DNA from: Erythrobacter sp. | GTDB lineage: Bacteria > Pseudomonadota > Alphaproteobacteria > Sphingomonadales > Sphingomonadaceae | Assembly (NCBI GenBank): GCA_024642335.1 | Contig: JAHEBH010000002.1 | Location: forward strand, 6,647 to 70,646 | Reading direction: 5' to 3' | Length of the DNA stretch: 64,000 nt | In this document: positions 5,045-59,807 of the stretch, piece by piece | How the letters are laid out: the number at the start of each line of letters is the position of its first letter | How positions within the stretch are numbered: the first letter of the stretch is position 1 | Notes under the pieces: model-generated | Database searches by the model: none | Told to the model about the DNA's origin: nothing | What the model saw: the letters and a program-made list of their open reading frames with translations, nothing else | Made by a program: the position numbers and the translations under genes

Positions 5045-5134
5045 TGGCGGAGAGACAGGGATTCGAACCCTGGGTACTCGTGAGAGCACAACGGTTTTCG
5101 AGACCGCCCCGTTCGACCACTCCGGCACCTCTCC
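5045..5134 (-). tRNA. tRNA-Ser (anticodon CGA)
   Basis: GGAGAGGTGCCGGAGTGG...GCGGT-CTCGAAA-ACCGT, long variable arm, GGTTCGAATCC, encoded CCA; 90 nt. Confidence 0.97.
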
Positions 5135-6682: not shown

Positions 6683-7351
6683 ATGAGCTGGACCGAAGAA
6701 CGCATCGCAACGCTGACCAAGCTGTGGGAAGGTGGCGCAACCGCCAGCCAGATCGCAGATGAACTCGGCGGCGTGTCGCGCAATGCAGTGATCGGCAAGG
6801 CCCACCGGCTCGGCCTCAAGTCGCGCCCCTCTCCCGTCAAGGCGAACGAAAAGAAGGCGGATAAGAAGAAGTCCGCGCCCCCGGCAAAGAAGGCGGAACC
6901 AAGATCTAAGGCCAAGGCGCCTGCGACAAGGGTTGAAGCTGCAACCGCGCCAAAGCCAGCAGGAAAGCCCATTCCGGAAAACAGCCAACCTCTGCCAAAT
7001 CGGCAGGAATCCCTGCCCAGGATCCATTCGGTTGGCCCCGGCGGTTTCGTACGCCAGGGCCCTGGTGATCAGCAGGCACCCATTCCGCCGGCACCGCCGC
7101 GCCGCCTGGTACCCGCCAAGCCAAGCCCCGAAATTGCTGAAAAGACCAGCCTGCTGGATCTGAGCGATCGCGTGTGTCGCTGGCCGATGGGTCATCCGGG
7201 CGAACCCGATTTCCACTTTTGTGGCGAGAAGGTGAACCCTGGCTTCCCGTATTGTGTGCAACATTGCGGAAGGGCCTATCAGGCACAGTTGCCGCGTGGT
7301 GCCCGCCGTCCTCCTCCGCCATTGCCCTTTGGCGGCCCGCGCGTCAGGTAG
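6683..7351 (+). CDS. gcrA: Cell cycle regulator GcrA
   Basis: MSWTEERIATLTKLWEGGATASQIA..LGGVSRNAVIGKAHRLGL and CRWPMGHP..FHFCG..YC..H. Confidence 0.95.
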   Translation: MSWTEERIATLTKLWEGGATASQIADELGGVSRNAVIGKAHRLGLKSRPSPVKANEKKADKKKSAPPAKKAEPRSKAKAPATRVEAATAPKPAGKPIPENSQPLPNRQESLPRIHSVGPGGFVRQGPGDQQAPIPPAPPRRLVPAKPSPEIAEKTSLLDLSDRVCRWPMGHPGEPDFHFCGEKVNPGFPYCVQHCGRAYQAQLPRGARRPPPPLPFGGPRVR

Positions 7352-7416
7352 ATTCAACGCGCGGGCGCGCCTCGGCGCCGAATCCGAAAAATCCGGAACG
7401 CTTGCGAAACACGCAG

Positions 7417-7610
7417 CCTGCACCCTTGAGGAAGGGGGGGAGGAGTGGGCACATGGCCACGCGTTTCGCGAAACTATGGCGCCCCGGCTTGGGGTCCAGG
7501 ACGCCGAGACTGCGGCATTTGATCGACACGACCCGAAGAACTACCGAAAAGTCTCCGCGAGCCTATAGGGGCATCAAACTCGTTAATCATGTAACGTGAT
7601 TACCCGACAA
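7417..7610 (-). repeat. Tandem element copy A (putative promoter plus structured ncRNA)
   Basis: Aligns end to end with 7671-7862; 27-nt identical core at 7486-7512; hairpins pair better on the minus strand. Confidence 0.8.
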
Positions 7611-7670
7611 TGCGTCTGGCATTTTGCGGCGACCATTCTTCCCTTCTGCAAAGCTGATAAGACACGTGGC

Positions 7671-7862
7671 CCTGCACCTCTGAGGAAGGGAGAGGAGATT
7701 GGCACACGGCCACGCGTCTATTGAAACTGAGGCGCCCTGGCTTGGGGTCCAGGACGCCGAGACTGAGGTGCTCATTTGAAGCGACCCGAAGAGCCCCGCA
7801 AGCCTCGGTCAAGCCTATAGAAGCACTCACCTAGTTTCTCATGTAACGTGGTTGCCCGACAA
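7671..7862 (-). repeat. Tandem element copy B (putative promoter plus structured ncRNA)
   Basis: Diverged copy of 7417-7610; identical core at 7739-7765. Confidence 0.8.
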
Positions 7863-7892
7863 GTGAACGAAGTAGCCGCAATGAAATTCCTG

Positions 7893-8681
7893 CTATTGCC
7901 AGCCAACATCCCCAGAGCGCTGCAATTCGCTTGTCTGTTCTACCTTCAGGAATTGATCGCCTGAAATGATCATACCGAGTGTGAACGCCTTTACTGCAGC
8001 TGTGGTTCGATCGGAAACTCCCAACTTGGAGAAGATTCTACGCACGTATACATCGACAGATGAAGGAGAAATTTCCAATATGTCCGCAATAACGGAGTTG
8101 CTCTTCCCCTGTGACATCCACTGTAGAACCTCCATTTCGCGGTTAGATAGCGCTGGAGGCTCTTCTGCCAGAGGAACGATGCGACAATACCGCTGAAAGG
8201 CATTCTGACCTAACGTGTGAATTCTGAACAACATGCTGTCGTCGGGCATGGGCGCGTCTTCATCCAGAATTGCGCCCAGGAAGCTGCTTCGCCCCTCTGG
8301 TCCAAAACAGGCCACACCGATCCCGCGACCCACACCATGTTGTTCTGCCAATTCAAGAAAGTACTTCTGCTGCTTCCCCAGTTCTTCGATCTCAACCTGA
8401 CCGGGCCACACAAAGGCCTCGAGTTTTTGTTTTGCAATTTGGGGAAGCGGATCAAAGCGATGGAGTGTGGCGCGATATTGCTGTTCCCAGCTCGCGGGCA
8501 ATCCGTCGCCGATAATAATACGGGGAGCCGAGGCACCGACAGAGATCGGTCCCCTCTGGTAGGCTTTAGAGATACCGAAGGCATTGAGCGCATACAAAAG
8601 CGCTCGCCGCAATGACGGCACGTCTGTTGTCTCGTTAATCGCCTTCAACAGGCGGCCAAATTCCTCCACGTCAATCTGCAT
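7893..8681 (-). CDS. LuxR-family regulator with autoinducer-binding domain (LuxR solo)
   Basis: W-xxx-Y...DP...W...G signature (SWEQQY, FDP, FVW, GIG) and C-terminal HTH LSNREMEVLQWMSQGKSNSVIA. Confidence 0.85.
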   Translation of the reverse strand: MQIDVEEFGRLLKAINETTDVPSLRRALLYALNAFGISKAYQRGPISVGASAPRIIIGDGLPASWEQQYRATLHRFDPLPQIAKQKLEAFVWPGQVEIEELGKQQKYFLELAEQHGVGRGIGVACFGPEGRSSFLGAILDEDAPMPDDSMLFRIHTLGQNAFQRYCRIVPLAEEPPALSNREMEVLQWMSQGKSNSVIADILEISPSSVDVYVRRIFSKLGVSDRTTAAVKAFTLGMIISGDQFLKVEQTSELQRSGDVGWQ

Positions 8682-8799
8682 GCCCCTCCCCCAAGTCAGG
8701 ACTGCGAAACTGCGCTAAGGCTGCGACCCTTGGCTAATAAGCCACCTCGCACAAAGGAATATTGCCATTATTGCAGATAATTAGCAAGTTGATTGCAAG

Positions 8800-10158
8800 T
8801 TATGCCTTCTTTGCAGCAGGAACATGATGATCGATCACCAAGGCTGCGACGAGAATGATCGCCGCGCAGACCACCAGTGTTGCAAAGAACGGGATGACGC
8901 TTGTCCCGCCAAGGTCCAGCAACCAGCCACCGAATGCGGTGGCGCTTACAGCGCCAACGCGGCTCATCAGGATTCCCAGCCCTATACCGGTCGAACGGAT
9001 CGAGGACGGGTAGCCCGCTGCCATGATCACATACATGCCGGCAATGCCGGCGCTGAAGAACGCACCCGCTGCTCCGATCAGCGCGGTCACAACCATGCGT
9101 TCCGCTTCATCGGGCGCTGCCGGCAGGCCTTCCACCGCGCCAGCCAGCGCCAGCAGAACCAGCAACAGCACCGCGCCCACTACAATCATCACCGGCTTTG
9201 AACCGAAATGCCGCATGGCCGCGCCCACGAGGATCGAACCGATCATCGATGTGATACCGCCGATCGACACGGTATTACCCGCTTGTTCGAGCGTAAAGCC
9301 GGTAGCGGTGAGGAAGGTCGTGGACCAGCTGAGGATCGAATAGGCAACCATGGCGGCTGCGGCGAAGGCCACGCCCACCCCAATATTGAGGCGCGTGAAG
9401 GAGGGGTCGAAAATGCCGATCTTCCCGCCATCGGGCAGGTCGGCCGCATGAGTTTCCGGGGCCAGGTCGATCTCGCCCTCAAGAACCAGCGCTGCACTCT
9501 TCTTTGCCTGCTCTGTCTTGCCCTGTCCCAGGAGGAAGGACGGGCTGTCGCGCAGGACTGCGAGGATGACCACCACCAGCCCCAGCGTGGCGAAGCCGAA
9601 GAACACGAACGTCCCGTCCCATCCACGTGCTATGGCCAGATCGGGGCCGATCCAGCCCACGATGGTCCCGCCTATCGGCGTTCCGACCGAAAGCGTGCTG
9701 ACGGCAATGGGGCGCCAGCGATCCGGCGTCCATTCGCTCGCCATGGTCAGCGCATTGGCATAGGCCGAGCCAAAACCAAGCCCGCCGATCAGGCGCCAGA
9801 AGGCCATCGACCAGACACCTTCAGCGCTGCCAGCACCGATTGTTGCCAATGAAAAGACTACCGCCGCGATGGCCAGCGCATAGCGGCGCCCGATTCGGTC
9901 TCCGATGATGCCGCCTGCGCCCGAGCCAAGGCCAAAGCCTACCAGCGCCGCACCCATGGCCAGGCCAAAAGTGCTGCGATCAACGCCAAAGTCCTCCATC
10001 ACCAGCGGAGCGATGATGCCGAGCAACTGCAGGTCCATCCCGTCGCAAACCAGGATCAGCATGCAAACGGCCACGGTCAGCCATTGGAATGCCCGCATGG
10101 GCGAGCGATTGAGTGCTTCGACAAACGAGATACTGCCCGCAGGCGCTGATGTAGCCAA
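8800..10158 (-). CDS. Aromatic acid:H+ symporter family MFS transporter (PcaK/BenK-like)
   Basis: LVCDGMDLQLLGIIAP, GDRIGRR, EWTPDRWR, YPSSIRSTGIG motifs typical of AAHS transporters. Confidence 0.8.
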   Translation of the reverse strand: MATSAPAGSISFVEALNRSPMRAFQWLTVAVCMLILVCDGMDLQLLGIIAPLVMEDFGVDRSTFGLAMGAALVGFGLGSGAGGIIGDRIGRRYALAIAAVVFSLATIGAGSAEGVWSMAFWRLIGGLGFGSAYANALTMASEWTPDRWRPIAVSTLSVGTPIGGTIVGWIGPDLAIARGWDGTFVFFGFATLGLVVVILAVLRDSPSFLLGQGKTEQAKKSAALVLEGEIDLAPETHAADLPDGGKIGIFDPSFTRLNIGVGVAFAAAAMVAYSILSWSTTFLTATGFTLEQAGNTVSIGGITSMIGSILVGAAMRHFGSKPVMIVVGAVLLLVLLALAGAVEGLPAAPDEAERMVVTALIGAAGAFFSAGIAGMYVIMAAGYPSSIRSTGIGLGILMSRVGAVSATAFGGWLLDLGGTSVIPFFATLVVCAAIILVAALVIDHHVPAAKKA

Positions 10159-40323: not shown

Positions 40324-40400
40324 TGGCGCGCCCGGCAGGACTCGAACCTGCAACTCCAAGCTTAGAAGGCTCGTGCTCTATCCAGTTGAACTACGGGCGC
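40324..40400 (-). tRNA. tRNA-Arg (anticodon UCU)
   Basis: GCGCCCGTAGTTCAACTGGATAGAGC-A-CGAGC-CTTCTAA-GCTTG...GGTTCGAGTCC...CCA; 77 nt. Confidence 0.97.

Positions 40401-59731: not shown

Positions 59732-59807
<76 letters not shown>

Follow-up and report, generated by a model that had tools for sequence, protein, structure and literature searches.

The 64,000-nt stretch of Erythrobacter sp. DNA analysed here (contig JAHEBH010000002.1 of assembly GCA_024642335.1, positions 6,647 to 70,646, forward strand; hereafter the window) comes from a 2.66-Mb genome assembly of 105 contigs that is 98.7% complete, and holds, between gcrA and a gene predicted to encode an N-acyl-homoserine lactone (AHL)-type LuxR receptor, a pair of repeated elements, copies A and B, that are the subject of this report. 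Repeat search and pairwise alignment find that A (7417-7610) and B (7671-7862) form a tandem direct repeat with a period of 252-254 nt, aligning end to end as a first-pass annotation of the window had described; the repeat consists of three co-linear blocks of 78-80% identity (7417-7448/7671-7702, 7448-7539/7701-7792 and 7560-7610/7812-7862), with a mean column identity of 80%. A search of the whole genome returns these two copies and no others. The flanking genes converge, as first annotated, and the gcrA stop codon and the end of copy A are ~55 nt apart; what that annotation left out of its finding is that luxR stands directly upstream of both copies on the same strand, its stop codon ~30-31 nt before the first conserved block of copy B, which makes a LuxR-controlled module or a luxR 3' untranslated region (3'UTR) element the relevant frame. 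A simple scan of the minus strand from 7300 to 8800 calls no terminator between luxR and copy B.

The repeat unit takes in a promoter-like part ahead of an RNA, in the order 20-bp dyad box, 23 nt, -10 hexamer, hairpin 1, hairpin 2, a short linker and a long GC-rich hairpin with a C/U-rich loop (Table 1).

Table 1. Features of the two small RNA (sRNA) gene copies, the candidate target and the flanking genes, in window coordinates.
Feature	Position	Strand	Remarks
sRNA copy A, distal, next to gcrA	7405-7556	-	predicted ~152 nt, ends predicted; fold z -4.3
Copy A dyad box, putative LuxR site	7590-7609	-	TGTC-N12-TACA; conserved block in all members
Copy A predicted -10	7562-7567	-	TATAGG; 6-8 nt before hairpin 1
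Copy A hairpin 1	7506-7555	-	apex motif UUCGGGUCG
Copy A hairpin 2	7478-7505	-	loop ACCCCAAG at 7488-7495
Copy A terminator-like hairpin	7410-7463	-	C/U-rich loop 7426-7447
sRNA copy B, proximal to luxR	7655-7808	-	predicted ~153 nt, ends predicted; fold z -3.3; R1 score 151.5 bits
Copy B dyad box	7842-7861	-	begins 31 nt after the luxR stop, no terminator between
Copy B predicted -10	7814-7819	-	TATAGG
Copy B hairpin 1	~7759-7806	-	apex degenerated
Copy B hairpin 2	7731-7758	-	loop at 7741-7748
Copy B terminator-like hairpin	7660-7719	-	bounds approximate
luxR 5' leader, candidate target	8682-8700	-	CCUGACUUGGGGGAGGGGC; directly before AUG
luxR, AHL-type LuxR-family regulator, orphan (solo)	7893-8681	-	Pfam Autoind_bind and GerE
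gcrA	6683-7351	+	Pfam GcrA 5e-41; convergent neighbour, context only

Structured RNA on the minus strand

Relative to shuffled controls, the minus strands of copies A and B fold with z scores of -4.30 and -3.34, compared with -1.25 and -0.80 for the plus strands. G-U wobbles make up 68 of the 399 paired cells in an alignment of clade members (our own sum of a per-pair table); read from the plus strand they would become A-C mismatches, which fixes the strand as minus and, together with the z scores, bears out the first-pass annotation in its placing of the fold and its wobbles on that strand only. The three hairpins are recovered in a ten-sequence MAFFT alignment of clade members that was not fitted to the structure, where 95.5% of cells are paired, compared with 37-46% after sliding of the 3' partners, and where two-sided pair changes number 10 against 3.9 in shuffles, with none of 500 shuffles reaching 10. 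When 32 distinct sequences are fitted to a covariance model, two-sided changes are seen in 32 of 40 pairs, in an alignment that leans toward the structure by construction. Compensatory changes are present in all three hairpins, so that the covariation among homologues which the first-pass annotation had put forward as a check is indeed found. Independent single-sequence folds give hairpin 1 the same fold in every member, on stems of wholly different sequence between clades, and with an apex, UUCGGGUCGCR, that is the same in the different clades. Judged by these comparisons, selection acts on the elements as minus-strand RNA, and we conclude with high confidence that A and B are structured RNA genes on that strand.

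Three unpaired parts are conserved: GUCGCR at the apex of hairpin 1, the loop of hairpin 2 and a run of C in the terminator loop. C-rich loops like these commonly serve to cover G-rich ribosome-binding sites. Hairpin 2 is as first described, GGCGUCCUGG-ACCCCAAG-CC(G/A)GGGCGCC with its U-G to U-A switch, and its loop is ACCCCAAG in the window and AACCCACAU or ACCCCACAA in other clades. The 3' hairpin had been drawn as a short GUGCC/GGUGC stem on an RNA of ~140 nt; we find instead a stem of at least 16 pairs and a predicted length of ~150-155 nt. The C/U-rich loop assigned to that hairpin does hold up, and is kept as a C-run across the family: each RNA has one CU-rich loop (CUCCUCCCCCCC in copy A, UCUCCUCUCCC in copy B), in which the C-run is expanded to UCUCCUCCCCCUUCCUC, similar to the anti-Shine-Dalgarno sequence of 16S rRNA, in the window clade; members outside it have just six C (CCCCCC). 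The last hairpin of clades 2 and 3 is a textbook terminator, with loop AGCCCCCCU and a stem followed by U5-8.

A further helix is possible between the dyad box and the hairpin-1 apex (7590-7609 with 7524-7535 in copy A, and likewise in copy B), of seven pairs with 99% of cells paired over 37 sequences. This helix is part of the consensus structure of one of our two covariance models, R2, and shows one-sided changes only, hence no informative variation.

A new RNA family that travels with luxR

We find no match to any Rfam model in 7000-8300 with cmscan at E ≤ 1, the alphaproteobacterial anti-Shine-Dalgarno sRNAs included, and eight related loci give chance matches only, far below gathering scores; the first-pass annotation, which had suggested this search, had likewise not recognised the family. 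Across the whole window the only Rfam matches at gathering score are three tRNA genes, at 5048-5134 (minus strand), 40327-40400 (minus strand) and 59732-59804 (plus strand). Nor is a conserved open reading frame (ORF) found on either strand when family members are compared, as frame, length and presence vary and many members have none at all; a conserved ORF is what the first-pass annotation had named as an outcome that would overturn its RNA reading. Literature searches turned up no published sRNA at this locus, and a survey of sphingomonad LuxR solos reports no conserved gene neighbourhood. Copies A and B are members of a new, previously undescribed RNA family.

BLAST detects single copies in only 8 of 36 genomes of the same genus, and the covariance models R1 and R2, whose E-values are rough since calibration was short, were needed for the rest. 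A LuxR orthologue is encoded in 36 of the 63 genus genomes, and in every one of these the RNA lies directly downstream of luxR on the same strand (29 by R1, seven more by R2 with filters off), while five complete genus genomes that lack a LuxR orthologue have neither RNA nor luxR at gcrA. The gene order abc2 - gcrA - RNA - luxR - MFS (major facilitator superfamily) is kept in ~30 loci. Outside the genus, where samples are thin at 1-6 genomes per genus, the element is at the same relative place in five of seven genera whose LuxR is 40-49% identical, and gcrA is next door in only one of the five that have the luxR-RNA pair. The linkage of luxR and RNA thus outlasts loss of gcrA and of the MFS neighbour, and because the pair recurs in other genera mostly without gcrA, the conserved unit is luxR, box and RNA.

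Less directed searches were of little use outside the genus. Applied genome-wide to 150 genomes of the taxonomic family, R2 returned only spurious GC-rich hairpins there, whereas targeted searches beside LuxR orthologues found members, and a degenerate pattern search of 400 genomes was as noisy as its control. Three weak R1 matches were counted as false, since they fall in genomes without LuxR (G007, G024 and G082), the last at a locus (L060) with neither gcrA nor luxR.

The product of luxR matches PF03472 (2.7e-14) and PF00196 (2.3e-19), has RhlR, CviR, LasR, TraR and QscR as its best solved relatives, and keeps the W, Y, DP, W and G positions of the ligand pocket when aligned to RhlR. With its autoinducer-binding domain, GerE helix-turn-helix and pocket residues, the neighbouring gene is by sequence criteria that of an AHL-type LuxR receptor. 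A search for LuxI (PF00765) finds none in the source genome and is positive in 40 of 121 genomes of the taxonomic family, which makes the receptor a solo. A and B are accordingly described as paralogous genes of a family that, in the genomes compared, is always found together with a single clade of orphan AHL-type LuxR receptors.

A putative operator at a promoter-like site

The T and A of the -10 hexamer are invariant in 28 aligned promoters. Upstream of it the box reads TGTC-N12-GACA across clades, with inner CAA/TTG, and in the third clade becomes a perfect 18-bp palindrome, GTCACGCAATTGCGTGAC. Spacing between box and -10 is identical in all clades, the box centre lying 32 nt upstream of the hexamer and thus at about -44.5 from the predicted start, where the box overlaps a poor -35 (ATGnnn). 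This position and this overlap are the geometry of class II lux/tra boxes, the site at which LuxR/TraR-type activators act. When the whole genome is scanned with a weight matrix, the box is found only at the two RNA genes (38.9 and 37.5 bits, next best 14.7), and A and B have both kept box and -10 while the spacer between diverged. A simple scan calls no consensus sigma-70 promoter, which is consistent with activator dependence. The box is probably the operator of the adjacent LuxR, whose binding we infer from where the box lies.

EcfG, sigma-54, CtrA and PhoB-type motifs were considered and rejected by eye on the alignments. A CGTT is present inside the box, but no GGAAC lies 16-17 nt upstream of it and there is no conservation at that place, so the arrangement of an EcfG/GsrN promoter is absent.

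Two other genera have the box, again next to luxR, and behind it a leader containing the GGGUCGCA motif, but what follows is a 127-codon ORF and not an sRNA body (L120:2336-2719, plus strand, with a match in L118). This ORF contains WAFKLRRMRD and FGEPxWDxLL, has no Pfam match, and finds only a weak relative in the window genome (E 3e-4). That the box heads such an ORF marks it as the start of a transcription unit, and the same box and leader at the head of a small protein gene could mean that the sRNA arose from, or became, an mRNA leader.

Clade 2 (L048-L056) has in addition a direct repeat, TGTAAA-N5-GTAAA, with 11-bp phasing, located 40-60 nt upstream of the box and after the luxR stop; this repeat may be an UP-like element or the site of a second regulator, and is not found in the window clade.

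The luxR leader as a candidate target

The leader just ahead of the luxR start codon contains two stretches that could pair with the RNA: CUUGGGG (8689-8695), which matches the hairpin-2 loop CCCCAAG, and a G-tract (8683-8692) complementary to the terminator loop, with which the leader forms a predicted duplex of 10 bp and -22.4 kcal/mol. Within the window clade the nucleotides of the leader, CCUGACUUGGGGnAGGGGC-AUG, are conserved even though identity among the LuxR proteins is only 52-58%, and CUUGGGG, the exact complement of the hairpin-2 loop, is present in 15 of 17 clade genomes. Loop and leader correspond elsewhere too: about half of clade 2 combines a CCCACAU loop with an AUGUGGG leader, and two genomes combine CCCAUC with GAUGGG. 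Loops and leaders thus match better within cognate groups than between non-cognate ones (7.4 vs 4.5-5.0 nt, and 6.0 vs 4.1-4.7 nt). The gcrA start region contains no G-rich site.

Genome-wide duplex scans give the CU-rich loop hundreds of G-rich partner sites, REP (repetitive extragenic palindromic)-like repeats included, so that no specific regulon can be named. These partner searches are dominated by G-rich repeats, GGGGAGGGGCCGGGGGUGGGGG, and by hairpins of the form CUCCCGC...GCGGGAGGGG, which have a REP-like look, are often near gene starts and occur in many copies outside the window (contigs C15, C16, C35, C59, C42, C69 and others of the source genome, G000).

The hairpin-1 apex motif GGGUCGCA recurs in sense ~30 nt upstream of the luxR start in clade 2, and luxR leaders of clade 3 have it as GGGCGCAnAT (loci with such leaders are, e.g., L054, L055, L058, L106, L107 and L111). 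In these leaders it may be a shared protein-binding site or half of an operator.

A proposed circuit and its alternatives

We propose that A and B are sibling sRNA genes of ~150 nt that would be activated by the adjacent LuxR solo, with loops that would mask G-rich ribosome-binding sites and the luxR leader as best candidate target, a reading to which we assign a probability of roughly 0.55. In this scheme, each copy would have its own promoter, made up of the -10 and of the poor -35 that the dyad box overlaps; the LuxR solo would bind the box and switch the RNAs on; the C-rich loops, ACCCCAAG and the anti-Shine-Dalgarno-like CU-rich loop, would then pair with G-rich ribosome-binding regions and lower translation; and pairing with luxR's own leader would close a negative feedback loop. 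Action in trans, the targets, and the start and end of transcription are all predicted from sequence. Among the parts of the scheme, control of the RNAs by the adjacent LuxR is somewhat favoured, whereas feedback of the sRNA on luxR is put forward tentatively. The RNAs would most likely serve an orphan LuxR receptor as its output, and probably as its feedback arm.

Several points weigh against this proposal. The box is assigned to the adjacent LuxR by adjacency and geometry only, and in the window clade it is a degenerate dyad, unlike classical lux/tra boxes; given its possible pairing with the hairpin-1 apex, it may moreover be transcribed. With no terminator before copy B, the luxR mRNA probably takes in the RNA sequence as well, and at the other end the window clade has only a weak U-tail (UUUCG, UCUUAUC) after the 16-bp stem, where a simple scan called no terminator. 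On the target side, the match of hairpin 2 to the leader is missing in clade 3, complementarity of loop and leader is only modestly significant against shuffled leaders, and for ~2.5% of translation-start regions, crudely defined, pairing with the CU-rich loop is as good or better.

In a second reading, luxR transcription continues through the elements, which are a structured 3'UTR of the luxR mRNA whose C-rich loops fold back on the ribosome-binding site of the same mRNA and govern its translation or stability, or from which an sRNA is cut. The short distance from the luxR stop to the element (only 30 nt, with no terminator), its invariable place immediately downstream of luxR on the same strand in the 36 genus genomes as well as in other genera, and the presence of two loops complementary to the luxR leader are all what such a 3'UTR would look like. 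The fixed spacing of box and -10 before hairpin 1, the dyad symmetry and the invariant T and A of the -10 point instead to a promoter, copy A has kept its box and -10 although it lies ~250 nt from luxR and behind the long terminator-like hairpin of copy B, and in two other genera box and leader begin a protein-coding gene. We consider the 3'UTR reading unlikely on balance, and it and an sRNA with its own promoter are not mutually exclusive.

A third reading accepts a real sRNA but places it under another regulator or sigma factor, with targets unrelated to luxR, as a general anti-Shine-Dalgarno or protein-binding RNA whose adjacency to luxR reflects shared inheritance. It would account for a box unlike the classical lux boxes, for a CU-rich loop that pairs about equally well with many G-rich start regions, and for the invariant apex GUCGCR, which has no assigned partner and recurs in sense in luxR leaders. 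It is made improbable by the strict co-occurrence with luxR (36/36, vs 0/5 LuxR-less loci examined), by linkage that survives the loss of gcrA and the MFS neighbour, by the restriction of the box to these two sites in the genome, and by alignments in which neither EcfG (GGAAC-N16/17-CGTT) nor sigma-54 arrangements are seen.

Position between the convergent gcrA and luxR would also suit a terminator or insulator duplicated by chance and devoid of RNA function, as transcription from either side could end at the long GC-rich 3' hairpin, or a variant in which read-through past the weak U-tail toward gcrA, ~55 nt away, gives an antisense RNA. A terminator has no need of hairpins 1 and 2 or of invariant loops, yet these are kept by covariation, the module is present in other genera without gcrA, and gcrA loci without luxR have no element; we therefore judge this very improbable. 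Least credible of all is a repeat element of the MITE (miniature inverted-repeat transposable element) or REP type, or a small protein-coding gene, which the tandem repeat and ORFs of 40-76 codons that mechanically overlap the element might suggest, but both are rejected, the former as the genome has only two copies, at a single syntenic site in every species and without terminal inverted repeats, and the latter as no ORF is conserved and indels are not multiples of three.

Returning to activation of sibling sRNAs by the LuxR solo, a broader version is also conceivable, though doubtful: a receptor with a single operator type would drive only its own sibling sRNAs and so have an entirely post-transcriptional output, with feedback through two C-rich loops that mask the receptor's own ribosome-binding site, in a module that moves between genera as a unit and whose sRNA came from, or turned into, an mRNA leader.

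Relation to known systems

In Yersinia enterocolitica, the sRNA gene yenS is switched on by the LuxR homologue YenR and its product represses yenI, the synthase mRNA, according to PMC3493969, which also summarises a similar non-coding RNA regulated by a LuxR homologue in Pantoea stewartii (Tsai & Winans 2011, Schu et al. 2009). On that account YenS is the closest functional precedent, with a LuxR-family receptor driving an sRNA of ~100-170 nt that feeds back on part of the same signalling system by inhibiting translation, as would be predicted here, and an sRNA gene associated with a luxR-family gene is found in both. We detect no relation in sequence or structure and imply no homology. The systems differ in host, Enterobacterales for YenS and Alphaproteobacteria (an Erythrobacter-like group) here, and in target, which for YenS is the synthase mRNA, whereas here the receptor is a solo without LuxI and the predicted target is the receptor's own mRNA. 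The gene is also tandemly duplicated here, in a system known from its sequence. If our proposal is right, the module would be an alphaproteobacterial counterpart of a YenR-YenS-type circuit.

The first-pass annotation had compared the elements to the cuckoo/CcsR/alpha-r14 sRNAs, and this comparison survives as an analogy only. A C/U-rich anti-Shine-Dalgarno-like loop on a hairpin and sibling copies in tandem are shared with those sRNAs, but their models give no match at E ≤ 1, they have several hairpins with CCUCCUCCC where we find one CU-rich loop per RNA, on the terminator, and the promoter type and gene context are different here.

RsaE/RoxS of Firmicutes and GsrN of Caulobacter are C-rich-loop sRNAs that mask G-rich ribosome-binding sites, GsrN requiring an EcfG promoter (GGAAC-N16/17-CGTT). 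The likeness lies in exposed C-runs (ACCCCA, CCCCCC) that are the most conserved unpaired parts here, and in predicted partners that are G-tracts at translation starts; the sequences are unrelated and the EcfG promoter is not present here. In Staphylococcus aureus, the 3'UTR of icaR mRNA carries a C-rich anti-Shine-Dalgarno motif complementary to icaR's own Shine-Dalgarno region. Here too, a C-rich motif downstream of the coding region of a regulator is complementary to the Shine-Dalgarno region of the same regulator, and the differences are a promoter-like box of its own, a second copy off the mRNA end and conserved extra hairpins.

LuxR solos are very common, and to our knowledge the signal and regulon are not known for most of them. 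Here comparative sequence analysis alone yields a candidate operator, a candidate sole target gene (the sRNA), a candidate feedback site and named cultured strains with the module, and, if the proposal holds, would add to the catalogues an RNA family with strong covariation. The strains are Alteraurantiacibacter aquimixticola SSKS-13, A. aestuarii JCM 16339, Altererythrobacter lauratis KCTC 52606 and A. palmitatis KCTC 52607.

Divergence of the two copies and insertions in the family

The closest relative, with a LuxR of 81% identity, also has a tandem pair. Between the two species the distal copies share 88% identity and the proximal ones 73%, and the proximal copies match the distal ones at ~70%. 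The duplication is thus older than the species split and the proximal copy is the faster-evolving, with change falling in particular in the otherwise invariant hairpin-1 apex. If the genes are what we propose, they would illustrate how sRNA siblings form, with one member of the pair conserved (88% between species) and its sibling changing faster (73%).

A second apparent tandem pair, in genome G073, was rejected as a single gene split by an insertion of ~290 nt. The insertion (L047:1245-1520, minus strand) sits in the linker between hairpin 2 and terminator, has 23-nt terminal inverted repeats and is MITE-like in appearance. In another species (L016/L043) this position is occupied by an insertion of 66 nt.

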